Assembly (NCBI GenBank): GCA_043806035.1
Contig: JAZDHK010000033.1
Coordinates: 1-64,000 of the forward strand
Source: an archaeon
GTDB lineage: Archaea > Nanobdellota > Nanobdellia > Woesearchaeales > UBA9642
Direction of reading: 5' to 3'
Length of the DNA stretch: 64,000 bases
Shown: piece after piece, positions 26,101-56,544 of the stretch
Position numbering within the stretch: position 1 is the stretch's first letter
How the letters are laid out: every line of letters starts with the position of its first letter
Program-made: the position numbers and the translations under genes
The notes under the pieces: model-generated
The model's database searches: none
The model's input: only the letters and a program-made list of their open reading frames with translations
What the model was told of the DNA's origin: nothing

Positions 26101-26142
26101 TGTCAAAATTGGCACAACGGCGGCAGCTGTTACCAATACTAA
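23119..26142 (+). CDS. Large surface protein with class III (pilin-like) N-terminus, PKD/Ig-like middle and Cys-rich C-terminus
   Basis: MKG|QLTIFVILGIVL..; GYDPDE..LTY.Y, LNGSGS Ig/PKD motifs; dense Cys in last ~390 aa; no C-terminal TM. Confidence 0.75.
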   Translation: MKGQLTIFVILGIVLFVAFTFLFFARATVVSLSANTQQKQAYADLIETSPIRYRIYSCLDAVTNEGVYWLGLQGGVLYDFQDGNTTFDPTGQGTQWLRYNASGTLGYEYDAAHVAYGLKEQLDSGCVYIGPPDYPYPHRYAISPLPTMYSGYQDWIALGFCSDVNLAGGPLGQNVLQKLCSPTGPNRYQVSADSTRTCWNILNGTPNVQEELAGYMQKQLKGCVNFSEYANISQHNITVVDNPNITITYGVDGFAIDVTYPFVVYIHGREPIVSFAKFSRQYPVRLKEMFQKITTIIGRDARSVLFNLSDIPGSYSGWPADYVVYRAMNVCTDPLCGVYYYDDIIQIIDTASLVKGKPFLFQFAVQDRPPVLDYLHNIAAGGFDIAIAENQTLIIDPRGYDPDEGVLTYNYSGWKETEDAYFNFTGCMADMTNCINDPSLYVVTVPFAPYNLSYSFWYVTTGRNASYVTNSSDTGLHFVTITVTKERGLQDWQNVSILVYDLPLATLNGMNNYSDLTGGKELWGSLEDVYILNGSGSRGSLLHNTSRVNFIWNDTTWPWGVIGVFEYQLVPDGLYDISSIRPLPFNQIGTHTMSLQINDTTGILSAPAYWDVDVKECLPHRNPSQSSYPYGSGSDFFRNHTCCTDVGTYAGSSVNCYGKSYWSCNPSTLCGSVFNEIPPAQLAIGVDPFDGTIIPATAITVPRVADPGECNDIYYRTYQQNCSDNRGNVCGGAVLDRWIKSVDCQSVLTASGDYCVGPCNPLDSHCHSPACQNTGFNEATYGHSCFNYSPGQTFKTNFITPPAVNGVCNTNWACSKDTSIIMNSGHYVGTSPGTYADTGGAWSNYSCRATCDGVGGCTFAYNCTRCIDTWGGVAHCIWNTDHYDYFGEYSACNPTDPSGPCTGTQLLQWPSCDPWWCCTASAGCYDECSATPYHEDCIVRDACFSPGCDYNWVSGSCGYDYTHGYMVMEGAALGGACSSVPGREGLCCNSTNYCCQNWHNGGSCYQY

Positions 26143-38100: not shown

Positions 38101-41100
38101 CTGGACAGCGGCAGGCTGTACGCGGCGAGCAGAAACGCAGTCATCAATGTCAGCACAGACGAGCAGGCGACCTGTCAACTCACGTATACAAGTGAAAGTG
38201 GTGCTGTGCTTCCTGGAGAATTTGCAAGCGCAGACAATCGAACGCACACGTTCTATGGCGTTTTCCTGAACAACACACCCGTTGTCATAAACTGCACGGA
38301 CGTCTTTGGACACGTTGGCAGGACAACCCCACAAATCTTAACATTCATTGTTGATGACGTCCCACCATCCATCCTCGAATGGGATGTCATCAACCCTAAT
38401 AGTCGCTACTTGCGCAACAGTACGAACAGCACTGATTTCGTCAAGGACTTCATCATTTATAGAGGCAATGGTACGGACATCCGCGTCAAGGTCGATGACC
38501 GGAATGCAACGTGTAAGTATGATTTGAGCACCACTACCTTTGAGAACATGCAATACACGTTAGAAGAATATGACGTGCATAACACACCACCCTACTACGT
38601 GCAGTTCAGAATAGGCAGCCAGCTCAACTTCACGGAAGGAGAAGTCAAGACACTGCACGTCTCTTGTGCCGATCCTGCAGGCAACGTCATGGACCAAAGA
38701 ATAAATGCAGGAGAGACATCATTCTACTATGATCACTTCACGTACAGGATGAACTACACATCTACCATCGGCCTCTTCCTCGGCCTGTACATCAACAACA
38801 AAGAGAACAACTCCTACATCAACAACCTGAACGCGCAATTGCGCGCCATAACCTTCGACGCACTACGCTGCAGATACACCTACTTCATCGACAATGCTGG
38901 CTGGCAGGAGCTTGGCGAAGATATCATGAGCCGTGTTAATTACACGCACACGGCAACAATTGCTCTTGAGAACAACAAGACCTACCGCTTCGACGTGTAC
39001 TGCGACCAGACGAGCCTCGAGCCAGAAACAAAATCCATAACCATCATGACAGACAATTACACCTTCATCCACATCGACACGCCCCGCTCAGGAGAATTCA
39101 CCGATCCCGCACTACTCCTGCAAGGAACGAGCGAACCAGGCAACCTCACCATCACCCTGACAACACCCGATGACCAAAGAACGTACGAACTGCAAACAAC
39201 AGGATCATTCACACAGCCCATCACCTTGTTCGGCGAGCCCGATGGGTTCAGCCAGAACACCATCACGGCACACATCAGAGACAGAGCGGACAACACCGCC
39301 TCAGATACCGTCATGGTGAGCTTTAACTGGTCAGGGCCATTAACTGATGCGCGTGTCGGCATCAACGGCCAGGAACCTATACCTATCACGGACACGACCG
39401 TACGGCAATTGCGCAACATCACCATCGCACTCGACACAGTTGATGCGCGCCTCGATCTTGAAAGAACAAACGTCAGTTTTAGAGACGCAACACACAACAT
39501 ACCCTTCACGAGAACAAACCTGCCCGATGCAATATTCCTCTCCTTCTCACCCCCACGAGTGGATATTGGCAGCTATGACTTAGATATCATTCCCCGCGCG
39601 AATGATGGCAGTGCAGGCCTGCCCCATCACATCATTGTCAGAATACACCCCAACGCCACCATAATCACCGTAGAAAATCCTGCAGAGGACCACACGACGA
39701 CAGCAAGCGTGCTCTTCAATGGTACGCTCGAACCATACGCGAACAGGACATACATTGCATTCACGACAAGCCATGACATCACCACCAGCAACCGCATGAC
39801 CACCTTCAGCTACACGAGCAACTGCCAAGATCTCGTGCACGGCTGGAACGACTACATCATCACCGCATGCATAGAGGAATTCTGCACCCCACTCCAGGGA
39901 AGCATGTATTTAGAAGAACGTATGCCAACCATCAACCTTACGGCAGTCCTGCCCGCATCCAATGTGTATTATGACCCAGCAAATGATGTGTGGAGGACAA
40001 ATCTTGCACGAGTGAACCTCTCGGGAACGGTCGTAGATGACGACGGCTCAACCTTCCTCATCTGGAACGGCTCACGCTACATTTACAACACCACTTACAC
40101 GACACAGCACGAATTCTTCGTCCAAGCAAACCTGACAACTGGCGTCAATAGGGAAGTGGCCAATAATTTCACCTTCCTTGCATTCGATCAAAGCAGCTGC
40201 ACACCCACAACGCTACTGGCAACAGTGCTGTACGATAGCGCACCCCCTCACATTACCTTCAACTATCCCGTCCTGCACCCAGACAGGTCAGGGCATGCCA
40301 ACCAAATCTATGCACGAGAGGATAGCCCTGTCTTCGACATCAGCACGAACGAGCCTGCACGATGCAACCTCACGTACACCATGGCATTCACGGGAGGCAT
40401 CAGCAACACCATTTCCTGCGATGGAGACTTCAGCACGACGCACAGCTGCATAACCTCTCCTATAGAGCAGAACACGCAAACGGTTATCACCTCCTGCGTT
40501 GATGTCTTCGGCAACACGAACACCACACCTGCCATGCGCTTCTTCGTGGACAACATTCCTCCTAACATCACGTGGGGAATAACCACCCCCAATTACACCT
40601 TGCAAGTGCAAGACCAGGCAAGAAACTACACGCTCTATTACAGTAATCTCACCCAGCTCAACATCACCACGCAAGCGGCGGATTATGCAAGCTGCGTATA
40701 CTCCAATGAAACAACACAGTATGAGTTCATGCTGCCCATGTACAACCAGACGCCGCTGGAACGACGATCTGCAGTGCTCGCTCTCATAGAAAACGTCAGC
40801 CAGCACTGGTACATCTCCTGCAGGGACTTCGTCGGCAACACCATCAACGATGCATTTAGAGAATACTACATCACCTTCAATCCCAATGCACTCTATGAGA
40901 TCAGCCTCACCATAGACGGCAAGGGCAACAACTCATTCATCAACAACCTCACACCAACACTGCGTGCAGGTGCAGCGGACATGGAATGGTGCAAGTACAC
41001 CGGACAACGATGGACGGGCAGCGGGTGGGTAGACACGCATCCACTGACGAGCATGACCGTGTATCAGGGAGGGGCGAATGCAACCACACCCTTGCTGGAA

Positions 41101-42110: not shown

Positions 42111-45100
42111 ATGAAACATGCACTGTTCGTGCTAGTGCTGCTAGTCATCCCGCTCGCTCTCGCTGTCGATGTGCTACCAGGTAATCTCGTGACGAACAAC
42201 GTCCAACCCACCATACACATCTTCTTCGACAAGAACACATCTGTTACCAACGCATCATTATGGAATGTTTCTGGACGCATGCCCGATACGTTCTTCTCCT
42301 ACGACCATGCCGTGAATGACACGACCCATTGGTATTTCAGCATAGAGCAGCCGTTGGCACACGGCAATTACAGCCTGCGATTCAACGCCACGGATGCACT
42401 CAACAATTCTGACCCGAACAAGAGAGTTTATTTCTTCATCGACCTCATCAAGCCGAACATCACCGCACTCACCATGTATCCCTGGAGAAACGATTACTTG
42501 AACGTCAGCAACCAAACTATAACTGTAACGACGATGGATAACCTTCCCGGCGTGCGCCTTATCGATGTCGTGCTGCGCAGGCAATCGACGACAACGAACA
42601 TCACTGCGCAGTTCAGGCAGATTACGTCCTGGGTATTTCAGGGCAATGCATCCATTCCTGATGGGAATTATACGCTGCTCGTGAACATCAGTGATGCTGG
42701 GGGCAATCGCGCAGACAGGAATCTTTCCTTCCTCATGAACGCAGAACCATTTCGCGTATTCTACGTTGCCCCTCCCTTCGGCTACACGGCAATAAACCCG
42801 TTTAATCTCACGCTGGGCACGAACAAGCAAGCCACCTGTTATTACAGCAAGAACAGGAACACGCCTTTCGGCAGCATGCTGCCCTTCACGGAGAGCGACG
42901 GCTTCAATCACCTCATTGCGAGCTTCCTGCTCGATGCAGCAATACAGAATATCACCGTCCAATGCATGATCCAAGAGGGAGGACTGAGTGACAGATTCAG
43001 CATCGAATTAGGGTATGATGCGACACTGCCGAACATACAGGACATGAGCGTGCATCCCAACAACGGGCAACCCGTTATTAACGAGGACCTTGACAATGCC
43101 TATCTTCGCGTACTAACTGATGATACGGCGCGATGCAAGTACAGTTTCAGCACGGATAACTATACGGATATGCTTCCGTTCGAAAATTTTTCCCAAGGAA
43201 TATTTGACGTATCAAACGCTCATTTCTTCAATGGGGAGATCGAGAATGGCAACAATTACACGGTCTTTGTACGCTGCGAGAATCGCGCAGGACTAATCAG
43301 CAGCGCACGCACCTTGCCGTTCAGTGTAGACTTGCAGGCAGCGGCAACGATAACCATCATTAGTCCATTGGCATACGTGCACAATCCCAATATTGTGTTC
43401 AACATCACTACGACAGAAGCCACCACGTGCACGTATGACGGCAGGCCATTCGAGCATGGAGGAGGCACAAGAAATCTCTATACGGATCCCACGTGGTATG
43501 AGGACGGCAGCCACTCCGTCGTCATCGCATGCGAATTCCAGCAAGGCCTGCAAACCAAGAACGTGACGTTCATCGTCGATACCGTGCAGCCCAGCCAAGC
43601 CGTCATTGCCGTGGACAACATCAGCTGCAATCCCGAACGCATCACGGCAAGCTTCTCTGCCAACGACACGAACGGCATTCTCGGATACAATTACACCGTC
43701 AGTGGCCCAGGAGGTGTTGTCAAGGAATGGACATTCGGCAGCAGTGGAGAGTATAGCGGAGACTTGCAGGAGGGTGCCACGTACACGTGGAGGGCATACG
43801 CCATCGACCGTGCAGGCAATGCAGGTCCTGAAGCCGCGCCCAAGAGTACGCGTGTGCTCAGTCCAGACAGCCTCTCGTGTGACGATACCTCTCCGCAGAT
43901 TTCCTTCGATGCAGACACGGATCAAAATCAGATACGCATAATGGTTGATTGTTATGACAGCGATAGTGGCTGTGTCGACACGTTCTGGTATGATCTCAAG
44001 CTGTCCAGCAGCACCGCCTGCACATACACACGCTTGAGAAACATCAGCCAACCCGTGCTGCTCAATGATTCTGCAAAATTCTGTGCATTAGTGAAAGACA
44101 AGGCAGGAAACAATGCGACAAAGAGCGAATTCTTCTCCCTGCACATCAACGCAACGCACTGCAATAATTCGGAGAAGGATGGCGACGAATCCGACACGGA
44201 CTGCGGCGGCAGCTGCTTGCCCTGCACGAAAGGGAAGCACTGCACGGACACGCAAGACTGCCTCGCCACGTTGTTTTGTGCCGCAAACAGCATATGCCAG
44301 CAACCAACATGCAATGACACCATCAAGAATGGCCAAGAGTCAGATGTGGACTGCAGCGGTGATTGTCCTCCTTGTGCGCTCAACAAGACGTGCACAGTAG
44401 CGGTAGACTGCGAAAGCGGCTACTGTGCCAGCGGCAAGTGCAGCGTCGCCTCCTGCAACGACGGTGTGCAGAACGGCAATGAGTCAGACATTGATTGCGG
44501 CGGCCAATGCGTAAAGTGCGAGCTCAACAACCGTTGCGTGGTAGATGCTGACTGCATGTCCGGATTGTGCAAGCTGAGTTTCTGCACGAAGAAGATAGAC
44601 GAGCAGGAGGTTCTGCCTCCCGAAGAGGCAAGCCACACGGCATCCATCGTGCTGCTCATCATCGGAGGACTGCTCATGCTCGGCGGTGCAGGATATCTGG
44701 TGTATGTCACCAAATTCGCATCACCGCCAGCCACCCCTCCTGCCATGCAGCAGAAACCACCGCAACGACCCGTGCTGCAGCAATCGAAAGGCCGTTTTCA
44801 TTTCAAGAAGAGACCATCACTGCTGCCAACGCACTTCGCGCCAGCCCCGGAGAAGAAGCCGGTGCAGGAAGAGTATGTGGATGTTCGTGATTTGCAGACG
44901 AAGTCTGAAGAGAAAAGCGATGCCTTTAAAGAACTGGAAAAAGTGAGTTCTGATGTCAAGGATCCTTTCGCGGCATTGTCCAAAATAGGAGACAAGGCAA
45001 TAGCGAATCTTGCGACAAAACGCCAGCTGGATACACAAGACATCGTCACGCTTGTCGAACATGCAGGGCAAGGACAGCAGCAGCTCACCGAGACCGTGCT

Positions 45101-45227
45101 GAAAAAACTCCTCTCAACCAATGCAATAACCAAGAAAGAGATCAGCGATGCGCTCTTCGAGCTTATGGACCAGCAGAAAATACGCTCGGACGATGCGCAG
45201 AAATTCATGAGCGATCTCGACATCTAG
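42111..45227 (+). CDS. Membrane-anchored Ig-like/Cys-rich surface protein with cytoplasmic tail
   Basis: Signal peptide; Ig domains like those in the giant; 3x C..G.ES D.DC.G.C..C repeats; TM IVLLIIGGLLMLGGAGYLVYV; Pro-rich/charged tail; GAGGTGA SD. Confidence 0.85.
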   Translation: MKHALFVLVLLVIPLALAVDVLPGNLVTNNVQPTIHIFFDKNTSVTNASLWNVSGRMPDTFFSYDHAVNDTTHWYFSIEQPLAHGNYSLRFNATDALNNSDPNKRVYFFIDLIKPNITALTMYPWRNDYLNVSNQTITVTTMDNLPGVRLIDVVLRRQSTTTNITAQFRQITSWVFQGNASIPDGNYTLLVNISDAGGNRADRNLSFLMNAEPFRVFYVAPPFGYTAINPFNLTLGTNKQATCYYSKNRNTPFGSMLPFTESDGFNHLIASFLLDAAIQNITVQCMIQEGGLSDRFSIELGYDATLPNIQDMSVHPNNGQPVINEDLDNAYLRVLTDDTARCKYSFSTDNYTDMLPFENFSQGIFDVSNAHFFNGEIENGNNYTVFVRCENRAGLISSARTLPFSVDLQAAATITIISPLAYVHNPNIVFNITTTEATTCTYDGRPFEHGGGTRNLYTDPTWYEDGSHSVVIACEFQQGLQTKNVTFIVDTVQPSQAVIAVDNISCNPERITASFSANDTNGILGYNYTVSGPGGVVKEWTFGSSGEYSGDLQEGATYTWRAYAIDRAGNAGPEAAPKSTRVLSPDSLSCDDTSPQISFDADTDQNQIRIMVDCYDSDSGCVDTFWYDLKLSSSTACTYTRLRNISQPVLLNDSAKFCALVKDKAGNNATKSEFFSLHINATHCNNSEKDGDESDTDCGGSCLPCTKGKHCTDTQDCLATLFCAANSICQQPTCNDTIKNGQESDVDCSGDCPPCALNKTCTVAVDCESGYCASGKCSVASCNDGVQNGNESDIDCGGQCVKCELNNRCVVDADCMSGLCKLSFCTKKIDEQEVLPPEEASHTASIVLLIIGGLLMLGGAGYLVYVTKFASPPATPPAMQQKPPQRPVLQQSKGRFHFKKRPSLLPTHFAPAPEKKPVQEEYVDVRDLQTKSEEKSDAFKELEKVSSDVKDPFAALSKIGDKAIANLATKRQLDTQDIVTLVEHAGQGQQQLTETVLKKLLSTNAITKKEISDALFELMDQQKIRSDDAQKFMSDLDI

Positions 45228-46540: not shown

Positions 46541-46583
46541 TCCAGACCGCAATCATTAAAAGCAACGCATTCCAGGGGACTGT

Positions 46584-47093
46584 ATGAACGCGCAAGTGCA
46601 AAGCCAGATTTTCATTTACATCCTTGTTATAGTAGTTGTCGGTTTGCTGCTCCTGCTCGGCTACAAAGCCATCGGAAACTTGCGTAATGATGCGTGCAAG
46701 GTCAACGAGGTTAGCCTGAAAGCAGAGCTCGAGACTGCAGTCCAGGATAACAGCGCGTACAAGGCGTCTGACGTGAGAACATTCCAGGCGGGCTGTGCAG
46801 GCAGTGTGCTCTGCTTTGCTGACGCTGCTCTGGTAGAGGGCACGGGGGGCGTTGATTTTCCCTTGCAGCTCGGCAGGCCCGCAACGTATTTTTTTTACGT
46901 CAATGACAGCATGAATGCGCACGTGCTAAGAAATGTGTTCATCCTGGACAATGAAGGCACGATGAACGAGCGGGCAATATTCATTCCTCGCGTCGAGGTG
47001 GAGCAGAACCTCACCTGCATCGAGGCAGTGCAGGGACTGTTCAAGGTGCGTTTTGAGGGCACGGGCAAGGGAACGAAGGTTTTCCCTGGGTGA
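46584..47093 (+). CDS. Class III signal (pilin-like) protein
   Basis: MNA|QVQSQIFIYILVIVVVGLLLLLG + small globular domain. Confidence 0.7.
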   Translation: MNAQVQSQIFIYILVIVVVGLLLLLGYKAIGNLRNDACKVNEVSLKAELETAVQDNSAYKASDVRTFQAGCAGSVLCFADAALVEGTGGVDFPLQLGRPATYFFYVNDSMNAHVLRNVFILDNEGTMNERAIFIPRVEVEQNLTCIEAVQGLFKVRFEGTGKGTKVFPG

Positions 47094-47096
47094 AGT

Positions 47097-48143
47097 ATGC
47101 AAAGAGGTGTGTTTGAGATCCAGTTCAACTGGATCTTCGTCATCATAGCAGGAGGCGTCATCCTCTTCTTTTTCCTGTCATTGATTAGCAAGCAGAAGGC
47201 GACGAGCGACGAGTCCATCAACCAGGACGTGCTGCGCAGGCTCGACACCATCCTCATCAGCACCGAGCAAGGCTATCAGACGTACAAGGAATTGCATCTT
47301 GTCAAGACACAACTGACGTTCACATGCGAGGATACGTCTCCATCGCTGACGACGCAAGGCATCATCAGCAATTTGCAGATAGGCAGCTTCTCTGTTGACA
47401 CACCGACGCAGATACTCTTCACGCCACCCTCGCTCAATACGGACACGTTCCAATTATGGACGGACACATGGGACCAGCCGTTCCGCGTTTTGCCCTTTCT
47501 CTACGTGACCGCCCCAGAAGTGTCCTTTTACATCGTCGAAACCACTCCGCCAGATCGTTCGCAGGAAATCTATGAATTACTGCCCGCAAATGTGAGCAAG
47601 AAACTCATCACTGCTGCAGACATCAATTACTTGCCGAACAAGAACGACCAATACAGTGTGGTCATTTTTCTCGATGCAGCAGTCAATCTCGCAGATCCTC
47701 TGTATACTCCTTCGCAGCTGAAAGGTGACGTACGGGCAGTCAAGGTGGAATCTACTGGGGATGCTGGTGAGGTGACGTTTTACAAGAAATCGTTTGTGGG
47801 GAATTTTTTCGAAAACGGGACGCTGCCTTTCATAGGCAACGAGATGCTCCTCGGGTCGATAGTGGCTGCGGACGCGCAGGCATACGCGTGCAATGTCAAG
47901 AAGGCGCTCGTGCGCTACAAGACCATTACTGAATTGCACCTTGCCCGGGTAATAAACCTGTCTGGCATGACCGATCCTACCTGCATAGGACCGTTGACCG
48001 CAGGACGAAGGACGCTCGAGTCCATGAACACAACGCTCAATTTCACAACGTCAGCGTTCCAGATGCTTGATTTATGCAGTACAGATTTGCAGACGAGCAA
48101 TGAAGATCTCGTGAGAGGAAGACGATGCCCACTCATCTACTGA
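47097..48143 (+). CDS. Class III signal (pilin-like) protein
   Basis: MQRG|VFEIQFNWIFVIIAGGVILFFF. Confidence 0.72.
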   Translation: MQRGVFEIQFNWIFVIIAGGVILFFFLSLISKQKATSDESINQDVLRRLDTILISTEQGYQTYKELHLVKTQLTFTCEDTSPSLTTQGIISNLQIGSFSVDTPTQILFTPPSLNTDTFQLWTDTWDQPFRVLPFLYVTAPEVSFYIVETTPPDRSQEIYELLPANVSKKLITAADINYLPNKNDQYSVVIFLDAAVNLADPLYTPSQLKGDVRAVKVESTGDAGEVTFYKKSFVGNFFENGTLPFIGNEMLLGSIVAADAQAYACNVKKALVRYKTITELHLARVINLSGMTDPTCIGPLTAGRRTLESMNTTLNFTTSAFQMLDLCSTDLQTSNEDLVRGRRCPLIY

Positions 48144-48607
48144 AGAAAGGACAATTGCAAATGCTCGAAAGCATAGGTGTCATCATCATCATAACCTTCC
48201 TCATCTTCTTCAGCTTCAGCATCTACCAACGATTCCATGCCAGCGAGATAGCCAGGAAAAATCAGCAGCAGAACCAGCTTTCTGCCATCGATGTTGCAAA
48301 TAGGATAGGGGAACTGCCAGAACTGCAGTGCAGCCACGTCGATGTTGTTACTGTAGGCTGTTTTGACCTGGTGAAAGTGCAAACCTTCGCAGCATTCGCA
48401 ACGTCTCCAGCATTCAGGCTCATGTACTATCCCCTCTTGAGGGAGAGCAGCATTACCGTCTACGAGACGTATCCTTCCCCACACAACTTCACCATCTACG
48501 AGCAGAATGCCACGAACACCAGCATACCATTCTTCATGCCTATAACTATCTACCACCCGCAAGAGCGAACGTATGGCTTCGGCTACATCGAGGTGCTCAA
48601 GGAATGA
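48125..48607 (+). CDS. Class III signal (pilin-like) protein
   Basis: KKG|QLQMLESIGVIIIITFL; LPELQCS. Confidence 0.72.
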   Translation: MPTHLLKKGQLQMLESIGVIIIITFLIFFSFSIYQRFHASEIARKNQQQNQLSAIDVANRIGELPELQCSHVDVVTVGCFDLVKVQTFAAFATSPAFRLMYYPLLRESSITVYETYPSPHNFTIYEQNATNTSIPFFMPITIYHPQERTYGFGYIEVLKE

Positions 48608-49089
48608 AAGCACAGATGGAAATCATGGGGTTAGCTGTCATCGTCGTCCTCATTGCCCTGGGCATTTTCATCTTCATCGGATTGTCGGCACGGTTCGGCG
48701 AGGTCAACCAGATTGTGAAACCCGAAGCGTACAATGACGAGCGTCTAGCGACGACGTACGTTGATGCGCTCCTTCGAACATCCGTCCCTAGCTGTCATGC
48801 CTTGCATGTCGATGAACTGCTTCGCGACTGCGCCTTGAATAACAGGACGTGCGGTGCTTTGGGTAGTTGTGAGCTCGTGCAACTCGTCATCGAAAATGTC
48901 ACCAACGCCACGCTGGACGTGTGGGGGAAGAACTATTCCTTGAACGTCACGTATCCGTTGGGCACGAAAGGGATAAGCTTCAGCAAAGGACCTCCTTGCG
49001 TGCGAAGGTATGGTGTGGAGCCGTACACGGTGAGACTTCATCCGTTTCCGGGAGATGTGCTTGTAGAATTGTCCCTCTGCAAAAAATGA
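48604..49089 (+). CDS. Class III signal (pilin-like) protein
   Basis: MKA|QMEIMGLAVIVVLIALG; ATGA overlap with the upstream gene. Confidence 0.75.
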   Translation: MKAQMEIMGLAVIVVLIALGIFIFIGLSARFGEVNQIVKPEAYNDERLATTYVDALLRTSVPSCHALHVDELLRDCALNNRTCGALGSCELVQLVIENVTNATLDVWGKNYSLNVTYPLGTKGISFSKGPPCVRRYGVEPYTVRLHPFPGDVLVELSLCKK

Positions 49090-49135
49090 TGTGCTAAGAA
49101 CAAACAATATAAACGTGTACGTCGGTTGAATCATT

Positions 49136-49231
49136 ATGACTATCGGTTTTTGGGCAAAGTTGCTCTTCATCTGCATCGTCTTGGGAGCACTCATCGTTAT
49201 GACAATAAAACTCGTGGGCATATTTTCGTGA
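49136..49231 (+). CDS. 31-aa single-TM micropeptide (not in ORF track)
   Basis: MTIGFWAKLLFICIVLGALIVMTIKLVGIFS*; ATATAAA at 49107-49113; stop 4 nt before the next start. Confidence 0.55.
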   Translation: MTIGFWAKLLFICIVLGALIVMTIKLVGIFS

Positions 49232-49235
49232 ATGC

Positions 49236-50162
49236 ATGGAAACTAAACCTTTGGCAACGGTTATTATGGCAGTCATCATAGCCGTGCTACTCTTAGGGAT
49301 GCTTGCATACTCTATCGCTACTATCAAGAAGTTTGAGGACAGGGACAAGTGCAGGCTCACCTCGTGGGCGCAGGCGAACAGCCAATACCAGCCAGGCATT
49401 GCAGGCATCATTCCAGGACCAAAGTTCGATTTAGGATTACGCCAAGACTGCCCAACCTATTACGTGACGTTCACCAAGGACAAGGTCACGGAGAGGAAAA
49501 GCAACAGCGACGACACGGAAGTGCTCAGCGTCTATGACAGCACACGGGGGAAACTGGTACAAAAGTACAAGCAGCTCACACCAGACATGGTCAACAGCGT
49601 CGTCGCAGAACAAATGCGTTACTGCTACTACCAGTTCTGGGAAGGCAAAGTGCCTGTCTTTTACAACAAGTATACGGACATCAATGTTTTATCAACGATT
49701 GCATTCGGTGTTGTTGGTGTTGCACTGACCCATGCGAACAACGTCCGCTGCTTTCCCTGTGCGGAATTGCACTTCAGCGACAGTGTTGATTATGACTCAA
49801 ACAAAGGCAGTGGTCTGTCCGTGCAAAACCTTCCAGAAACACAACTCCCCCCTTCTGAAAATACGGCAAGCATAGGCTATTATTTGGTCAACAGGAAAGG
49901 CAAGAACATGAACAGCACGTATTTTGATTATTTGAACAGCTACAACGGCTACTGCCAACTTACGACGGGCAAGCAGGGAAGCTGCCTGGCTGAAGAGCTC
50001 AATGACATGGACATAGATCCCTATCTCGTGCTGGAAAAAGACAAGTACTACAAAGTCTTGCTTATCAGGAGGGGAGAGGAACGGGACGAGTACACCATAA
50101 CATCGTATGTTGTCCCTGCTGATCGGGAAGCAAAGATATGCACGGAGGGCATGGTGTCATGA
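49236..50162 (+). CDS. N-anchored Cys-containing surface protein, paralog of 50159
   Basis: N-terminal TM; C..., CPT, AEQMRYCYYQFWEG, CFPC pattern. Confidence 0.75.
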   Translation: METKPLATVIMAVIIAVLLLGMLAYSIATIKKFEDRDKCRLTSWAQANSQYQPGIAGIIPGPKFDLGLRQDCPTYYVTFTKDKVTERKSNSDDTEVLSVYDSTRGKLVQKYKQLTPDMVNSVVAEQMRYCYYQFWEGKVPVFYNKYTDINVLSTIAFGVVGVALTHANNVRCFPCAELHFSDSVDYDSNKGSGLSVQNLPETQLPPSENTASIGYYLVNRKGKNMNSTYFDYLNSYNGYCQLTTGKQGSCLAEELNDMDIDPYLVLEKDKYYKVLLIRRGEERDEYTITSYVVPADREAKICTEGMVS

Positions 50163-51043
50163 AGGCACAAATAAGCAGTCTCTTGCTCGTCACCATTGTC
50201 ACGATACTGACCTTGCTCGTCGTGCTGCTCGTCATGTCCGGCATATTCTCGAGCACGAATGATGCCTTTGCGTACAAGGACTGCCAGGCGAGCGTGGAAA
50301 AATTCATCGCCCGCACAAAATTGACGAAAGATTACACGACGGCGAGCATCACGTGCAGGACGAGAACGGTGAATGTACGCGCCACTGATCAGGAACAGGT
50401 GAAACGGCAACTTGCGGAGGAAATGCGCAGCTGCTGGTCAACATTCAAACAAGGTAATGTACGGTTCTTCGTTGAAGAGGGCACGTACTGCCACCCCTGT
50501 GCTATTGTCAATTTTAATAAGAGAATGAAACCGATTACTGATTTCAATGCGTACTTGGCGCAAAGGAAGATGACGAGCAGCAACCTCACGTATGCGGCTT
50601 ATTTTATAGGTTACAGCACGCCTGGAGGACAGGAATTAGCAGTCTTCACAGATAATGCAAGTTTTGGAAATGCTCTTCTCCTTGATCCGCAGAAGCATTA
50701 TGTCGTGCTGTTCCACCACATGATGGGCATGGAAACCATACGACAATTCAAAGAAAGAATAGGCGGTGAGACGAACGCAGTATTTTTAGGCATTGGAGCG
50801 GGGGGTGCCGCTGCTGGAGTTGTGGGTATTATTCTTGTTACTGCAGGAGTTGTTTCTGGACCCATAGGCTGGATCATCTTGGGCGCAGGCATGGTCATAG
50901 GGGGGGTGATTGCAGACATTTGGGGAGACCCTCCAGAATGGGTGAGCAGCATCATGCTTATAGAATACAAGCCGGGAGAACTCGAGAGGCTCGGCTGCCA
51001 ATTTGATGAAGTGCAGCAGGACATGTTCGGCAACCTAAACTAA
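50159..51043 (+). CDS. Pilin-like protein with internal Gly-zipper hydrophobic hairpin
   Basis: MKA|QISSLLLV; AEEMRSCW..F..G, CHPC; GIGAGGAAAGVVG...GPIGWIILGAG. Confidence 0.75.
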   Translation: MKAQISSLLLVTIVTILTLLVVLLVMSGIFSSTNDAFAYKDCQASVEKFIARTKLTKDYTTASITCRTRTVNVRATDQEQVKRQLAEEMRSCWSTFKQGNVRFFVEEGTYCHPCAIVNFNKRMKPITDFNAYLAQRKMTSSNLTYAAYFIGYSTPGGQELAVFTDNASFGNALLLDPQKHYVVLFHHMMGMETIRQFKERIGGETNAVFLGIGAGGAAAGVVGIILVTAGVVSGPIGWIILGAGMVIGGVIADIWGDPPEWVSSIMLIEYKPGELERLGCQFDEVQQDMFGNLN

Positions 51044-51077
51044 ACATTTATAAAATTAGTTCACGCCTTGCACGGGC

Positions 51078-51215
51078 ATGCATGGCCAGAAAAGCACTTT
51101 GAAGGAGATGATCGTTCTTGCAGCGGTGATTATCATTTTCATCATCATTTTGTCGTTTTTATTCAAGGACAAGGTTTCCAACCTGGTCGATAGCATCATT
51201 TCCGTATTCCACTAA
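51078..51215 (+). CDS. 45-aa micro-pilin-like peptide (not in ORF track)
   Basis: MHG|QKSTLKEMIVLAAVIIIFIIILSFLF...; TTTATAAA 51047-51054; stop 2 nt before the next ATG. Confidence 0.6.
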   Translation: MHGQKSTLKEMIVLAAVIIIFIIILSFLFKDKVSNLVDSIISVFH

Positions 51216-51217
51216 CT

Positions 51218-52015
51218 ATGAAAGGACAACTCAACAAGCAACTGTTGGGCTTCATCATGCTAGCCATTGCAATCATCATGGCATACTTGTTGCTCACGCA
51301 CGGCAGAGACTATGCATTCAAGATGCAATACTGGCTCTTCGGACCACCATCCGACGATGATGATCGTGCACACTACTATTTTGATCGCATGGCAGAATTC
51401 CTCGAGAGCTCCGCAGTGACGGACGATTTCTCGAAAAAATTGCCAACAGAGGTACCTTGCCTGCTTTCACGGTATGCGTACGATGAGGACAAGCCGCTCT
51501 CGAGCAAGTACTTCTTCAGCGTCGACTATGAAGGGCCTGCAGACAACCAGCAGGGCAACAAGGCATACGTCTTGCACATGCACGTGCAAACGCCATCAGG
51601 CTTCATTGATAATGCCTCAAAAAGACTGGGCGTGCAGACGTTCAGGTATAGGTGCTCTGCAATCGAGCCAAAAGTGAACAGACCTCCCGTCATGCTCGCG
51701 CAGGACGCATTCCTTTGTGGAGTGAACCCCCCTGCACGGTACATACTTCTCCCGGACCAGCACGTTGCAGGTATGCCGTTCCTGCAGGACTACGCCCAAA
51801 TAAACAAGACCACGAACACGTACTACTTTTCCCGCTACCCTTCATTGTACATCTTTGCAGACACGGCAAACCCTGTTGAAGAGGACAAATACCGATCCTA
51901 CTTTTACGTCTTCGACCCCGCAGACAGCATGTACAAGGCAAGCTCGACTCGAGACAGCATACTGCGCAGCCTGCAAGAGATTCCCTCCTGCACGTTCAAG
52001 AAGCGGAAGACGTGA
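51218..52015 (+). CDS. Class III signal (pilin-like) protein
   Basis: MKG|QLNKQLLGFIMLAIAII. Confidence 0.7.
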   Translation: MKGQLNKQLLGFIMLAIAIIMAYLLLTHGRDYAFKMQYWLFGPPSDDDDRAHYYFDRMAEFLESSAVTDDFSKKLPTEVPCLLSRYAYDEDKPLSSKYFFSVDYEGPADNQQGNKAYVLHMHVQTPSGFIDNASKRLGVQTFRYRCSAIEPKVNRPPVMLAQDAFLCGVNPPARYILLPDQHVAGMPFLQDYAQINKTTNTYYFSRYPSLYIFADTANPVEEDKYRSYFYVFDPADSMYKASSTRDSILRSLQEIPSCTFKKRKT

Positions 52016-52089
52016 CTGCGGCCGCAGCATCCGAAACCTTTAAATAGTGAAAGAGCGGCTGTATTTCTAAAAGTTTCGAGGTGACGGTT

Positions 52090-52344
52090 ATGAAGAAAGG
52101 TGTGGAACTTTCTATGAATGTCATCATCATTGCAGCAATAGCACTCGTTGTTTTGGTGATATTGGTGGTGCTTGTCCTAAACAGCGCAGGGCCTGTGGCG
52201 GACACGAACAAGTGTGGCGCGGGGCAAGGCATGTGCATCGGAGAAGGCGATGAGTGTGGTGACGGCTACATCGTGCAGCCGTTGAGCAACTGCCCGACAG
52301 CAACGCCGAAATGCTGCGTACCCTTTGGCGGCGAGCAGCAATAA
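52090..52344 (+). CDS. Small pilin-like protein with beta-defensin-like 6-Cys domain
   Basis: MKKG|VELSMNVIIIAAIALVVL; C-x6-C-x6-C-x11-C-x6-CC; GAGGTGA SD; TTTAAATA 52039-52046. Confidence 0.8.
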   Translation: MKKGVELSMNVIIIAAIALVVLVILVVLVLNSAGPVADTNKCGAGQGMCIGEGDECGDGYIVQPLSNCPTATPKCCVPFGGEQQ

Positions 52345-52354
52345 AGGTGCAAGC

Positions 52355-52591
52355 ATGAGAAGAGGTGTGGAACTTTCTCTTAATTTTATCATTATTGCGG
52401 TCATCGTGCTCGTCATCCTGCTCATAGCCATCGTTCTCGTCATCAATGGCGGCACGAGCTTCAATAGGGACACGAAGACCTGCACGTCAAGAGGAGGACA
52501 GTGCATTCCGGGAGGGGACAGTTGCCCTTCTGGCTCGATACCTGTTCCTGGCGTAGAGGGATGTGACGGCAGCTGCTGCCTCGGGGCATAG
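52355..52591 (+). CDS. Small pilin-like protein with beta-defensin-like 6-Cys domain (paralog)
   Basis: MRRG|VELSLNFIIIAVIVLV; CTSRGGQC...C...C...CC. Confidence 0.8.
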   Translation: MRRGVELSLNFIIIAVIVLVILLIAIVLVINGGTSFNRDTKTCTSRGGQCIPGGDSCPSGSIPVPGVEGCDGSCCLGA

Positions 52592-52594
52592 CTC

Positions 52595-52731
52595 ATGAGG
52601 AGTACAGAGCTGGCGATGAACAGCATCGTCACCATGGCCGTTGCTGCCTGTCTCTGTTGTTCATCTACTCAGGTGATGGTTCAATTAACGAATGCTGCAT
52701 ATCAGGTGAGAGTTGTTGCATAGACATATGA
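52595..52731 (+). pseudogene. Degenerate third pilin-defensin copy
   Basis: MRSTELAMNSIVTMAVAA, then in a shifted frame LLFIYSG...ECCISGESCCIDI*, whose stop overlaps the next ATG (ATGA). Confidence 0.6.
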
Positions 52732-54422
52732 AGAAAGGCATGGCTGCCCTGGAGTTTGTCGGCTACTTGCTGCTGATGCTCGTGGTCATTCTAGTAGCGA
52801 TGTATCTCATCAATGGAGGAATAAGCATGTTTGGCATGGCTACCGGCTGTGAAGGGCAGAACGGCGTGTGCAAGGAATCCTGTGGTGAGAATGAACGAAC
52901 GGTCATTTTCTTCAAGGGCTGTCCCCCGTCTGATGACAGGGCAGATAAGGAGAAGAAGCACTGCTGCGCCCCGCAAAAAGAAGATCAGGAAGGAGGCAGC
53001 GAGAGTGATGCGAAGTGCAAGAACCAAAATAATGGGTACGCCTGCGGCAATGGCACGCTCAGATACGGCAATAGAAACATTCCCTTCGTTTCCATGGTGT
53101 GCTTAGACCAGAAATGCGTGCCTCGCTGCGACTTTTGTGCAAGAGTCCTGGGCAGCGATACTGTTTGCAATCCGCTGCCAGGCGTGAATCAAGAAGTCAC
53201 GTTCACTGATGCTTTCTCGTGCAGAGCCATGGAAAGTCCTCTGGATTGTGATGCACTCAACCTGCATGGTGACTGCATCAGAGGCTTCTGCCCGGGTGAC
53301 ACGTACTGTGCAAAACGAGACGGCAATGGAGCGAGAGATGGTGAATTGTACATCCGCTATTCCGACCAGCCAGAATACTGTGCGGGAGACTGCGCCTTGC
53401 CTGGCACAATCGTGATCGTCGGTGACCCATTACGCCTCACCGTCAGTTACTCTGGACCGGACAGGAAGCTCTGCGCGGTAGATGTACTCAGAGAGGATGG
53501 GCAAGCCAACAAATTCGTCAGGCAGTTCACACCAGCATGCAGGAACGTTTCCTTAGATAATGGTCCATGCTCATTCAGGTGGGTGTTTGAATGCGGAGGA
53601 GATGCACCTGCATTCGTGCTCGAGAATGACCCATTGCAGTTTCTAGTGAACAGTTCAGAATATGAATTGTTGAAGAATGTGCCCTTGCGTATCGATGTCA
53701 TCGCCTATAATTGTGACGTCAGCGATAAGCAGGGCAACGTCCAGACGAGTCCTTGCCAGGACAAGGGAAGAAACGAATTAGCCCACGCCCGCATTTCTCT
53801 CGACTTAATGAAGCCGTCATCTGCAGAGCTGCGCAAAAGAAATCCCATAATCACCATAGCATCATCCAATCCATCGACGAAATCCTGCATTGTTACCTGC
53901 AAGAACTCATTGGGGGAGCAGTGTGGGCCGCTGAACTACCTGGGTGTGGGTGCAGGAGAGCAGTGTGGGGAGAACTTGAACTGGGAGGGAAATTTGCCCA
54001 CACTAGCCTACAACAAGTGGAACGAACAGCCAATAGACAGAACAGCAAACCCTGTATTGTGCTTCAGAGGCAGGCTCACGAGCAACCCGCTCTTCGTTAA
54101 TTACACGACAGACCCTAACGGGTGTGAGCGGTTCTTCTACCAGAAAGTAGCGGAGGAGCAAGTGTGCCTGTGGAACAGCTGTGCACAAATTTCTGATGCT
54201 GCACAATGTGAAGACACGCTCAGCCAAGGCTGCAGCTTCAGCTGTATTTGGGATAATGTGAAAAAGACGTGCCGGCTGTGCAGCACGCCCGAAACCCAAT
54301 GCAAGTACATCAGAGACAGGGCTGCCTGTGATGCTGCAGCAGAAAAGTGCGGCATGCAATGCCACTGGCGGCGACGATTCCTGTTCCTGCCTGACACGTG
54401 CGAGCCGGGGCCGAGACCATGA
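52728..54422 (+). CDS. Pilin-like Cys-rich multidomain protein
   Basis: MKKG|MAALEFVGYLLL; CEGQNGVC..SC...C...CC defensin-like module; further Cys-rich modules. Confidence 0.75.
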   Translation: MKKGMAALEFVGYLLLMLVVILVAMYLINGGISMFGMATGCEGQNGVCKESCGENERTVIFFKGCPPSDDRADKEKKHCCAPQKEDQEGGSESDAKCKNQNNGYACGNGTLRYGNRNIPFVSMVCLDQKCVPRCDFCARVLGSDTVCNPLPGVNQEVTFTDAFSCRAMESPLDCDALNLHGDCIRGFCPGDTYCAKRDGNGARDGELYIRYSDQPEYCAGDCALPGTIVIVGDPLRLTVSYSGPDRKLCAVDVLREDGQANKFVRQFTPACRNVSLDNGPCSFRWVFECGGDAPAFVLENDPLQFLVNSSEYELLKNVPLRIDVIAYNCDVSDKQGNVQTSPCQDKGRNELAHARISLDLMKPSSAELRKRNPIITIASSNPSTKSCIVTCKNSLGEQCGPLNYLGVGAGEQCGENLNWEGNLPTLAYNKWNEQPIDRTANPVLCFRGRLTSNPLFVNYTTDPNGCERFFYQKVAEEQVCLWNSCAQISDAAQCEDTLSQGCSFSCIWDNVKKTCRLCSTPETQCKYIRDRAACDAAAEKCGMQCHWRRRFLFLPDTCEPGPRP

Positions 54423-55087
54423 GGGGAGAGGCAACACATGATCAAGTGATAGGGTTCATCATACTTGTCTTCATCCTGGTGGCTGTTGTTTTTGGCATTT
54501 ATTGGAAATTCTTTCACAAGAGCGAGCAGCAAATAGCTGACTTAGAAAGTTGCGGAACGTTCAGCATCGTCGTCGCTGGCGACAGCCTGACGCGGCCAGG
54601 AGAATGCATTGTTGGAAAATGCCCGACGGACAGGCAATACAAGCAAGTGCCTGGAATGTGCGATCCAGGAATGGTGTGCTGTGTGGATCAATCATTGGAA
54701 ACGGATGTTCCTGTGCTCATGTACCGGCTCAAGGGAGAGGATACTCGGAAGTACAAGCCAATGCAAGGCAGCATAAATCTCGAAAAGGGCAAGAAATACG
54801 TCTTCAAGATGCCACAGCTCACCGAGCAGCAGGATGCAGTATCGTGTGCAATCACCATGTACGAAGTCGATGATTTTGAGCAATTGCCCACGCAAGAGGG
54901 AGGCAATGACAACAGCGCCAGAGACGAGCGCATTGACTGGGCAAAAAACAACTGCATTGAGAATGCGACAACATGGATGGATATAATCTTTCCCGAAGAG
55001 GCCAATTATTTGCTGTTCATCAAGAGTATTGACTCCTCAGGGGAGGAACTCGTCGTTGAGCCTGTTGAGCTGAGCGTGGTCTCGTGA
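54419..55087 (+). CDS. Pilin-like protein with defensin-like module and beta domain
   Basis: MRG|EATHDQVIGFIILVFIL; C...GEC...C...C...CC. Confidence 0.72.
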   Translation: MRGEATHDQVIGFIILVFILVAVVFGIYWKFFHKSEQQIADLESCGTFSIVVAGDSLTRPGECIVGKCPTDRQYKQVPGMCDPGMVCCVDQSLETDVPVLMYRLKGEDTRKYKPMQGSINLEKGKKYVFKMPQLTEQQDAVSCAITMYEVDDFEQLPTQEGGNDNSARDERIDWAKNNCIENATTWMDIIFPEEANYLLFIKSIDSSGEELVVEPVELSVVS

Positions 55088-56514
55088 ACGGCAGCCTTGA
55101 TTTTCATTTCCTTCTTGAAGCGATCATGATTTCCATCATCGTGCTCTTCATCTTTGGTTGCGTCAATGGTGCATACCATTCGTTGACGAACGCTGACGAT
55201 AGGCAGGTGAGCCTGAACAACTTCAACGCCTTAGCAACGGGCATGCAGAGTCTCGTGAACGTGCAGGACAGAGTCATGGTACAAGGCATGACCTTCTCTC
55301 TCCCTGCCAGAGTATACGTTGTCGGCTTTGACAGCGAATGGAATGAGAATGTCAAGCAGGCAGGATTGACAGATGACAGCTCCTATGAAGGTGTGCACAA
55401 GCCACAACAATGCTTGGTGAACGAGCATTCGCCAGAGGATGCTTGCTTGTGCTTGTACGAGAATGAGCAATTCGCCTACATGCACGGTAGCGAGAACAGG
55501 TTTGGAAAATTAAGTCCAGAAGAACGCATCAAGGCGTACGAAAAGCCCATCATGGCCTGCTACGTGTTCTCCTCAAAACCCGATGTGGCGGGGAGGTTTA
55601 AGCCAATAGTCTTCCTTAGCACGTGGGCAAGCAGCGACAGTCCCGTTGCAGAGAATGCAAAAAAGCCGTTCTTTGCAACAGTCCGTCCAGACCAGCCTCC
55701 GTATGCTGGCGTCTTGGGAAGCAAGGATAACGAAGCAGGAAAATATGCATTCCTCATCTTCAAAGGCAATGACAAAACCCACACGCTCTACTACGAAAAG
55801 TATGAGACCGACGAAAAAATTTACATTTACCTTACCACGAAAGTAGCGACACAGGACCTTTCCTTCAGAGAGTACGAACTCAAAAAACAGGCAGGATATT
55901 GCAGCGACAACAGCCATGCCAATTGTGCGGGAAAGACCATAGGAACGAGCATAGGCACGGGAAGGTATGGCAATACGCTCGACGAATGGTATGCTGTTAG
56001 TCAAGGAAGGTATGCGCAAGCAGCACCCTCTGCGGTGTGCAACGGCCGTTTCACGTGCGAACCAATATCAGAGGAGAAAGGATGCAGGATCGTCTGCCAG
56101 CCGTACTGCATAGAGCAGTGCAAAGACCAGAACTGCAAGGCAGCAGTCATCACGGAAAAGTGCGAATGCAACGGCATCAAATTTTCTGGCTACTGCGCAT
56201 GCACGCAGGACGTCACCACTGGCACGTGCCCCGCCATTGACGGCATTCCCACCCTGCTCTATCACGACCAAGTCATCCAGGGATACGGCGATGCATTGCA
56301 GCAATGCATTGCCGAACACATTGCAGACGACGCGTATGTCGAAGATCAGCTGAAGAGCATAGTGCATTATGCATCAGATGACTATGCCGACTGTAGTTTT
56401 GAGCGTCTCGATGGTGACGATGCGTTCAGTGCATGCGAGCACGATGTGTGCATGGCATCGGCGAACCCTTCCTGTGTGATTGCTGCAGAAGACAGATGCA
56501 CGCCTCGACGATAA
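55084..56514 (+). CDS. N-anchored (pilin-like) Cys-rich surface protein
   Basis: GTGA overlap; MNG|SLDFHFLLEAIMISIIVLFIF; CLCLY; Cys-rich C-terminal half. Confidence 0.7.
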   Translation: MNGSLDFHFLLEAIMISIIVLFIFGCVNGAYHSLTNADDRQVSLNNFNALATGMQSLVNVQDRVMVQGMTFSLPARVYVVGFDSEWNENVKQAGLTDDSSYEGVHKPQQCLVNEHSPEDACLCLYENEQFAYMHGSENRFGKLSPEERIKAYEKPIMACYVFSSKPDVAGRFKPIVFLSTWASSDSPVAENAKKPFFATVRPDQPPYAGVLGSKDNEAGKYAFLIFKGNDKTHTLYYEKYETDEKIYIYLTTKVATQDLSFREYELKKQAGYCSDNSHANCAGKTIGTSIGTGRYGNTLDEWYAVSQGRYAQAAPSAVCNGRFTCEPISEEKGCRIVCQPYCIEQCKDQNCKAAVITEKCECNGIKFSGYCACTQDVTTGTCPAIDGIPTLLYHDQVIQGYGDALQQCIAEHIADDAYVEDQLKSIVHYASDDYADCSFERLDGDDAFSACEHDVCMASANPSCVIAAEDRCTPRR

Positions 56515-56544
56515 ACATATAAATTGTTCTTGTTCAGTGCATGC

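Follow-up and report, generated by a model that had tools for sequence, protein, structure and literature searches.

Among bacteria, sets of minor pilins or pseudopilins are exemplified by GspH-I-J-K of the type II secretion system, which accompany GspG, and by FimU-PilV-W-X of the type IVa pilus, which accompany PilY1. In archaea, the pilins of the Methanococcus maripaludis Epd pilus carry the sites RA↓QI, KG↓QV, KG↓QL, and KG↓QI (the arrow marks the cut between positions -1 and +1), and EppA requires a Gln at +1 (PMC4371748). Epd-like archaeal type IV filaments (T4F; system 1) have two platform genes as their hallmark, and in DPANN archaea the ATPase and platform genes are adjacent and the pilins scattered; a recent census, in its account of these scattered DPANN T4F genes, left undecided whether they build a structure (PMC13705601). 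Neither class III proteins nor scattered pilins in DPANN are new (PMC13705601, PMC4371748). Here we describe an array of 14 co-directional plus-strand open reading frames (ORFs), A01-A14, at positions 46584-56514 of a 64,000-nucleotide (nt) stretch of DNA from an archaeon of the order Woesearchaeales (assembly GCA_043806035.1). This stretch, the window, forms the first 64 kb of the 111-kb contig C33 (JAZDHK010000033.1), in a genome of 1.5 Mb that is divided over 42 contigs and 93.7% complete. The array products range from 31 to 564 amino acids (aa; in order 169, 348, 160, 161, 31, 308, 294, 45, 265, 84, 78, 564, 222, and 476 aa). Most of them are, as the best-supported reading of their sequences, prepilin-like proteins with Epd-type class III signals, and comparison with relatives identifies the array as half of a gene cluster that is conserved in Woesearchaeales/Nanoarchaeia.

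The array was compared with the Epd pilus by site and layout only, and is like it in the [KR][GA]↓Q type of site and in having several pilin-like genes in one operon (EpdA-E in system 1). The very small, head-less major pilin of the Epd pilus (PMC13705601) is comparable to A08s (51078..51215), a 45-aa, helix-only, pilin-like micro-protein that starts MHG↓QKSTLKEMIV, and the two platform genes of the Epd pilus and system 1 recur in the T4F machine encoded on contig C28 of this genome. In contrast to the Epd cluster, which holds its own ATPase, platform genes, and peptidase, the array holds none of these, the core genes lying on other contigs; it is also linked to giant surface proteins and has more genes (14, with a further 4-5 on contig C16). 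Like the bacterial GspHIJK and FimU-PilVWX sets, the array contains four pilin-like genes of different sizes in a fixed order, one of them much larger than the rest: A01 (46584..47093; 169 aa; MNA↓QVQSQIFIYI), A02 (47097..48143; 348 aa; MQRG↓VFEIQFNWIF), A03 (48125..48607; 160 aa; ..KKG↓QLQMLES), and A04 (48604..49089; 161 aa; MKA↓QMEIMGLAV). It further shares with these sets small candidate bulk subunits, large candidate displayed proteins, and tightly packed or overlapping genes. It differs from them in belonging to an archaeon, with no outer membrane, and in that neither a PDB sequence search nor a fold search with the A02 and A03 models found homology to a known minor pilin or pseudopilin; it is in the number, sizes, and fixed order of its genes that the array may be likened to a minor-pilin priming complex. 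Class III signals, large functional heads, and a T4F-type machine encoded elsewhere are also features of the Sulfolobus bindosome (PMC13705601, PMC4371748), whereas the array has no ABC transporter or solute-binding domain by Pfam, and its heads are Cys-rich and of a fold without known match. Finally, A08s and its 51 positional counterparts in relatives (39-67 aa) resemble the helix-only pilins of Flp/Tad systems in consisting of a leader, one helix, and a short tail. However, the segment that links the putative cut site to the helix is more polar than its Flp equivalent, and no meaningful Flp family match was obtained, the match of 1 of 19 A03 members (E 0.019) being noise and A08s giving none.

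Twelve of the 14 ORFs begin with a leader of 3-9 residues that ends in G or A and precedes an uncharged hydrophobic helix of ~20 residues, and the 12 leaders listed in the original prediction were all found at their genes (A01-A04 and A07-A14). Nine of these leaders have K or R at -2, with N in A01 and A14 and H in A08s; Gln occupies +1 in A01, A03, A04, A07, A08s, and A09, and the other leaders are followed by V (A02, A10, and A11), M (A12), E (A13), or S (A14). We then counted the motif in de-duplicated orthologues aligned by hidden Markov model (HMM). In A03 (n=86, 84 non-gap), position -2 was K in 71 and R in 9, -1 was A in 38, S in 30, and G in 16, +1 was Q in 82, and +6 was E in 81. The corresponding values for A04 (n=88, 84 non-gap) were K 56 and R 24, S 32, A 27, and G 25, and Q 84, with E at +3 in 83; those for A01 (n=66, 62 non-gap) were K 48 and R 12, A 36, G 13, and S 12, and Q 57. 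A small residue (G, A, or S) at -1 was, in other words, present in 84/84, 84/84, and 61/62 sequences of A03, A04, and A01, which bore out the predicted class III leaders. A02 (n=95, 93 non-gap; -2 K 65 and R 23; -1 G 48, A 29, and S 5) showed mixed residues at +1 but Q at +5 in 93, followed by a near-invariant FNW, and A10 (n=131, 121 non-gap; -2 K 98 and R 17; -1 G 66 and A 42) had Q at +1 in 68; G, A, or S stood at -1 in 82/93 and 110/121 non-gap sequences of these two families. On the evidence of these alignments the leader motif is under selection, and the positive-inside rule would account for its K/R but not for the small -1 residue or the +1 Gln.

Within the genome, such leaders were also concentrated in the array and the motif was specific. 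Under a loose rule (a leader of at most 12 residues ending in G or A, then 16 uncharged hydrophobic residues), 142 of 1940 crudely called genome ORFs qualified (7.3%) versus 8 of 14 at 46500-56600 (binomial tail 1.7e-6), which made this region the densest run of 14 ORFs in the genome; the next, with 7, was the PilB/PilC locus on C28. The count of 8/14 is an undercount, because antisense ORFs were called in place of A01, A08s, A10, and A11. An N-terminal hydrophobic segment was found in 327 of the 1940 ORFs but was preceded by [KR][GAS]Q in only 21, of which 20 lay in pilin-like settings and one, with a Rossmann-like N-terminus, was a likely false positive. In particular, eight were canonical pilins of the form [RK][GA]↓Q[AG]A[LM]EF[LI]..YG (e.g., QAALEFLxTYGWA) on C23, C26, and C28; two were genes of the C28 T4F locus; two were C14 proteins with weak matches to PF04021; four shared a KG↓QVTIF start, including the 1007-aa gene of the window; and four were A03, A04, A07, and A09.

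The conservation of the array was addressed with A02, for which one homologue (22-34% identity) was detected in 38 of 40 relatives, comprising 18/18 genomes of the same family and 20/22 of other families of the order. In a phylum-wide sample of 250 other genomes, each with a completeness of at least 90%, a profile of A02 matched 226 (224/248 without two unpublished genomes, G262 and G263), including 49 from the other orders of the class. When 20 kb around A02 was taken from 20 of the 38 relatives, selected by the length of their contigs and for a wide spread, tblastn and blastp recovered a common order of giant protein, ~1000-1700-aa protein, A01-A04, then A06/A07 and A10/A11, with matches to A01 in 17 loci, A02 and A03 in 20 each, A04 in 18, A06 in 8, A07 in 10, A10 in 10, A11 in 5, A14 in 2, A12 in 1, and A09 and A13 in 0. 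A scan of one genome per species gave 236 pattern matches, of which 227 were confirmed and 80 kept. In 101 loci, which include the window's own, HMM matches numbered 69 for A01, 101 for A02, 89 for A03, 88 for A04, 53 for A06, 56 for A07, and 65 for A10; orthologues were 22-36% identical, with conserved Cys and motif columns. Synteny was counted on 94 loci (the window and six loci with an identical A02 were dropped), among those with enough flank. A03 directly followed A02 in 74/85 loci, A02-A03-A04 were strictly adjacent in 70/82, A01 directly preceded A02 in 54/88, and downstream of this quartet A06/A07 were found in 41/56 and A10 in 43/56. Gene order in relatives, which the original prediction had named as a point that could overturn it, was therefore not random.

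The conserved order was A01-A02-A03-A04, A06/A07, a ~50-aa ORF, A10 copies (often one to four in tandem), and A14. The ~50-aa ORF, the counterpart of A08s (39-67 aa), followed the last A06/A07 gene in 51/54 loci, and most of the counterparts listed had a K/R-rich leader ending in G, A, or S before one helix. With an iterated HMM, A14 gave 46 matches in 40/101 loci, the window's own included, the weakest of which were other array families; an A12-seeded search of the 101 loci returned only members of the A10 family. By iterated HMM, A09 and A13 had no relatives in the 101 loci, and a leader-bearing ORF of ~200 aa occupied the A09 position in many of them. The swappable cargo that had been envisaged was thus confined to A09, A13, and the large C-terminal part of A12, whereas A01-A04, A06/A07, the ~50-aa ORF, A10/A11, and A14 were fixed orthologous families. 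An A03 profile searched against 5.8 billion proteins matched 284 clusters; among the 120 listed, none had a Pfam domain and every source name given was "hypothetical protein". The record titles of the loci name Candidatus Woesearchaeota, Nanoarchaeota, and Nanoarchaeia, together with (among loci L048-L125) many entries for "uncultured Methanosarcinales archaeon", one for "Methanosarcinales archaeon", and one for "Candidatus Binatia bacterium"; the Methanosarcinales and Binatia titles are probably automatic mislabels.

Downstream of the quartet, A05s (49136..49231) is a hydrophobic micro-ORF of 31 aa with no basic leader, listed as a tentative gene; several relatives (e.g., L023, L025, L092, L093, and L096) have ORFs of 40-58 aa after A04 and before A06/A07, and A05s may be a real micro-protein. 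A06 (49236..50162; 308 aa; weak leader METKPLA↓T) and A07 (50159..51043; 294 aa; MKA↓QISS) are paralogues that match each other's HMMs, the leader motif of A06 being poorly conserved among orthologues. A second hydrophobic segment is clear in A07 (residues 208-226) and marginal in A06 (149-167), and A07 is probably a membrane-embedded component. A09 (51218..52015; 265 aa; MKG↓QLNKQLL) carries a lineage-specific head. A10 (52090..52344; 84 aa; MKKG↓VELSMNVIII), a candidate fibre subunit, and its paralogue A11 (52355..52591; 78 aa; MRRG↓VELSLNFIII) are 45% identical and have six Cys each; A12 (52728..54422; 564 aa; MKKG↓MAALEF) matches the A10 HMM and joins an A10-like N-terminal module to an extension with 44 Cys, and is followed by A13 (54419..55087; 222 aa; MRG↓EATHDQV) and by A14 (55084..56514; 476 aa; MNG↓SLDFHF; 25 Cys), the last array gene here. 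The alignment of A10-A13 revealed a common module of a helix followed by C..GxC..C..CC. The predicted head sizes (~15 to ~540 aa) were correct, and the proposal that the heads are mostly unrelated held for A01, A03, and A04, whose profiles align no further than the first ~35-76 columns, but not for the A10-A13 module or the cross-matching A06 and A07. Every array ORF has one N-terminal hydrophobic segment, and the heads contain 2-44 Cys as well as sequons, a composition that fits an extracellular location.

The array genes are tightly packed. Four of the five ATGA/GTGA overlaps originally listed were real, at 48604 (A03/A04), 50159 (A06/A07), 54419 (A12/A13), and 55084 (A13/A14, GTGA), but at 52728 the letters ATGA are present without an overlap, the previous gene ending 136 nt upstream; A02 and A03 overlap by 19 nt, and the remaining gaps are 2-74 nt. 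ATGA overlaps are trivially favoured here because the second codon encodes Lys or Arg. A blastp search of the array's own genome returned no paralogues of the array proteins. Predicted sigma-70 promoters (8, versus 11.0 in shuffled sequence, standard deviation [sd] 3.4) and terminators (17 versus 11.4, sd 3.5) were within ~1.6 sd of expectation, the promoter model being unsuited to archaea. Two DNA sequencing runs from one study contain the stretch, and there was no RNA run among the runs listed.

Structures were predicted for two members of the quartet. The AlphaFold2 (AF2) model of A02 (21-row alignment; predicted local distance difference test score [pLDDT] 89.2, predicted template modelling score [pTM] 0.84) has an N-terminal helix of 56 residues (3-58), followed by a beta-rich domain (63-246) and, at the C-terminus, a helix bundle. 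That of A03 (79-row alignment; pLDDT 92.2, pTM 0.76) has an N-terminal helix of 59 residues (4-62), then two short helices and an antiparallel sheet of four strands (108-116, 120-126, 136-144, and 149-159). The 79 rows consisted of the window sequence, 18 others, and 60 of 62 further candidates, a second-copy match and an overlong ORF having been dropped; L023 (a 363-aa form) and L032 (N-terminally short) were left out. The order of secondary-structure elements in the A03 model, and in part that in the A02 model, fits that of a type IV pilin, in which an extended N-terminal helix of ~50 residues leads into a head of antiparallel beta-sheet. With hhalign, the A01, A03, and A04 profiles aligned to each other with a probability of 87-92% over 34-76 columns, the common part being the leader and helix only; pilin families likewise share only the leader and helix. 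In the ESM Atlas, the nearest named clusters were DUF7287, DUF7288, PF04021 (34% of members), and DUF7266, with DUF7289 the nearest by structure (template modelling score [TM] 0.60); all feature scores were below 0.9 and the Pfam scans did not confirm the assignments, which are leads only. With A01 as query, a Nanobdellota cluster of 385-aa Peptidase_M64 proteins aligned over the whole of A01 (TM 0.79 by query), a lead that hints at A01-like modules fused to enzymes elsewhere. A complex prediction of A01, A02, and A03 with A04 as partner scored 0.58, as did one control; it gave no answer and was not used for or against binding.

The genome encodes T4F machinery outside the array. A single prepilin peptidase gene (Peptidase_A24) was found on C13 (26436-26759; 49.4 bits against a cut-off of 26.5, E 6.7e-13), in an ORF of 281 aa that also has a weak FlaK_Arch match (E 1.2e-9) far under the cut-off of that model. 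One strong T2SSE gene (PilB-like, with a PilB3_C domain) and two adjacent T2SSF (PilC-like) genes lie on C28, in a locus that runs from two pilins through the two platform genes, the ATPase, and a 384-aa ORF to five leader-bearing genes, including a 919-aa VWA protein. No T2SSE or T2SSF match was present on the array contig C33. Because the core T4F genes are not co-located with it, the array is at most a satellite module rather than a T4F locus. Among the 40 relatives, A24 was found in 37, T2SSF in 38, and A02 in 38. We also observed an orphan 755-aa T2SSE-like ATPase on C41 (33961-34446; locus L003:1030-3297), a contig with no platform gene, T2SSF matches being restricted to C28. Most of the relatives (G001-G040) have at least four T2SSF matches, probably two pairs of platform genes, as against the single pair here; a second T4F system may have been lost from this genome or left unassembled.

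In relatives, the A14-family gene is followed by leader-bearing genes of ~300, ~175, ~170, and 400-760 aa. The corresponding genes of 283, 181, 172, ~383, and 655 aa, contiguous with the A14 family in relatives, are located here on the minus strand of C16 (29541-34481), with starts MKG↓QMSLPWYF, MKG↓QVKYYFEH, MKRG↓LSFIADLL, and MKA↓HFFLPAVV, and adjoin a housekeeping gene that is also their neighbour in the complete genome G034. Thus, the second half of the array was split off to C16, and ~18-19 genes are present in this genome in two places.

From the anatomy of the locus, we proposed that the array encodes prepilin-like subunits of a surface structure derived from type IV filaments, with divided roles and assembled in trans by the C28 machine; for this model as a whole, we regard the chances as evenly balanced. 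Each array protein would insert with its N-terminus in and its C-terminus out, and the A24 peptidase on C13 would cut after the G, A, or S at -1, leaving Q (or V, M, E, or S) at +1; cleavage at the predicted site, judged by itself, is probable. The freed N-terminal helices would then be packed into a type IV-filament-like fibre or a short pseudopilus by the only PilB-like ATPase and the split PilC-like platform of C28. A01-A04 would be the core or priming set, and they may form an initiation complex and translational coupling might fix stoichiometry, as originally suggested; the bulk of the fibre would be made of the helix-only A08s and the tandem, 80-aa, six-Cys A10/A11, with A12-A14 displayed on it as large Cys-rich heads, and A06/A07 would serve as accessory parts embedded in the membrane. 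That the array constantly lies beside giant glycoprotein-like surface proteins suggests a single cell-surface attachment apparatus.

Several results weigh against this proposal. A05s and A06 are without a good leader, and a late hydrophobic segment, ill-fitting for a filament subunit, was found in 36 of 61 members of the A07 family. Foldseek and VIA-align searches with the A02 and A03 models, a check called for in the original prediction, retrieved no pilin: A02 matched generic helix bundles only (Z at most 9.2, on residues 265-348), and the matches of A03 were confined to single long helices (Z 6.0) and to sensor domains of a PAS/Cache-like kind (best 4jgp_B, Z 6.0, root-mean-square deviation 2.9 over 84 residues), all within the tool's noise range. 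Profile matches to the genome's own canonical pilins were weak (A04 52.8%, A01 19.5%, and A03 0.5%). A PDB sequence search with four family profiles found nothing below E 0.1, nor did a canonical pilin profile. Pfam and NCBIfam gave no meaningful match for any array protein, and noise only for members of the A01, A03, and A04 families; PF04021 (Class_IIIsignal) matched no array protein at E at most 0.01 and no A01, A03, or A04 member at E at most 1. These scans say little, because canonical pilins fail them as well: PF04021 matched none of six, including two beside the ATPase, and the two C14 proteins (E 3e-4 and 0.011) were below the cut-off. In addition, at least 15 distinct conserved pilin-like genes exceed the known minor-pilin sets, which is unusual, and the ~10-kb flanks of the 101 loci contained no platform gene, peptidase, or canonical pilin and one weak ATPase match. 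Three fragmented, A02-positive relatives (completeness 89-95%) had no A24 match, and among 20 listed genomes without A02, 19 keep A24 and 17 are also without A03, so that presence and absence did not co-vary; as A24, T2SSF, and A02 are all near-universal, this co-occurrence test does not discriminate.

The motif evidence would serve equally well if the proteins are cut by the prepilin peptidase and no extended filament forms, the products making instead a membrane-proximal scaffold, similar to a bindosome or a pseudopilus stub, that anchors or positions the giant surface proteins. Non-pilus class III proteins are known in archaea, namely the Sulfolobus sugar-binding proteins (PMC4371748, PMC13705601). 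The array constantly adjoins the giant and the ~1000-aa surface proteins, and its many distinct conserved subunits and polytopic A07 would suit a fixed complex better than a homopolymeric fibre. However, the ~50-aa helix-only protein found in 51/54 loci and the tandem 80-aa A10 copies look like bulk polymer subunits, and the data do not separate stub from fibre; we consider such a scaffold rather unlikely. A further alternative dispenses with cleavage: the N-termini would be plain signal anchors of type II (N-in) membrane proteins, belonging to an unrelated surface complex, and their basic residues would reflect the positive-inside rule. In keeping with it, neither a known pilin family nor a known pilin fold was retrieved, A03 had its best, though weak, fold matches among extracytoplasmic sensor domains that follow a membrane helix, the ESM Atlas returned CHASE and sensor-kinase clusters for A04 (TM 0.43-0.54), and the array was never beside T4F core genes; A06, A07, and A05s fit this reading best. 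What it leaves unexplained is that, in 60-130 orthologues of each family, -1 is almost always a small residue and +1 almost always Gln, and that [KR][GAS]Q otherwise occurs in this genome almost only on pilins and T4F-locus genes (20/21); we judge this reading distinctly unlikely. An artefact of ORF calling in a hydrophobic, low-complexity region is scarcely credible: A05s (31 aa) and A08s (45 aa) are short, and the crude caller chose antisense ORFs at four places, but orthologues with conserved Cys and motif columns exist in ~90% of sampled genomes and AF2 confidence was high. For A01-A04, A06, A07, A10-A12, and A14 that explanation is effectively refuted.

Downstream of a ribosomal/SecY operon and upstream of the array, three large surface-protein genes are found on the plus strand. 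The protein of 1007 aa (23119..26142), linked to the array but outside it, has the leader MKG↓QLTIFVILGIV. The giant surface protein of 5299 aa (26200..42099) carries a Sec-type signal and 213 sequons, and in 12 of the 20 relatives' loci it had tblastn matches that precede the array. The protein of 1038 aa (42111..45227) has a Sec signal, Big_13, Cys-rich repeats, and a C-terminal anchor; tblastn matches to it adjoin A01/A02 in 19 of the 20 loci, and in relatives it lies directly before A01. Here, two minus-strand membrane ORFs separate the 1038-aa gene from A01, two genes that are adjacent in relatives. One of these ORFs (45465-46040) encodes 191 aa. The other stretch (46152-46700) reads ..GPAVNLLL..GVLINS, stop, LALFNMLPVAMLDGRKVW, stop, WNKF.., with in-frame TGA at 46290-46292 and 46233-46235 and no clear HExxH; we take it to be an M50 (site-2 protease)-like remnant from its motifs, and Pfam gave no match for it. 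TGA is the commonest stop in the genome (415 of 900 long ORFs), so this stretch is probably a decayed gene and not a case of recoding.

The 1007-aa protein belongs to four proteins of 714-1007 aa with the common N-terminus KG↓Q(V/L)T(I/L)F.I(I/L)GIV, the others being at C7:32125-34314, C16:4505-6649, and C28:31888-34203. It shows N-terminal similarity to two of these three, and no Pfam family was found for the KG↓QVTIF proteins; those in the window and on C28 adjoin giant surface-protein genes. The PNP gene that follows A14 gave a self match only and is not conserved as a neighbour. By Pfam, several genes of the window identify its source as an archaeon, among them those for ribosomal proteins L32e, L19e, and S4e, a Hef-like helicase-nuclease, SecY, and an EMC3/TMCO1-like insertase. 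A 457-aa ORF at 6514-7887 has weak Pfam matches to small and large primase subunit domains (E 1.2e-4 and 1.4e-5), which suggests a fused PriS-PriL primase.

To our knowledge, the Woesearchaeota have no culture and no named surface machinery, and host attachment by DPANN archaea is an open question. A fixed, near-universal, multi-family cluster of pilin-like genes beside giant surface proteins appears to be new: judged from listings of the literature on Woesearchaeota and pilins, no paper describes this cluster, and the supplementary DPANN T4F tables of the recent census (S4/S5, S10 Fig; PMC13705601) might list some of its genes. In the most far-reaching form of our proposal, which we hold to be doubtful on balance, the array and its C16 half would encode a dedicated organelle of Nanoarchaeia for host contact or feeding. 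This would be a multi-subunit, T4F-derived fibre, present in ~90% of the sampled genomes, that combines 45-aa helix-only and disulfide-knotted 80-aa pilins, four invariant minor-pilin-like primers, Cys-rich heads, and coupled giant adhesins, from families that are in no known-family database. If the N-termini are uncleaved, the cluster would still be a conserved surface complex of unknown kind. Taken together, a near-universal, single-copy, syntenic cluster of at least 15 unannotated prepilin-like families with sharply defined predicted cleavage sites offers a testable object in these archaea. If the proposal is confirmed, the array families would merit models of their own, as neither Pfam nor NCBIfam captures them, and could be used as markers of the apparatus.

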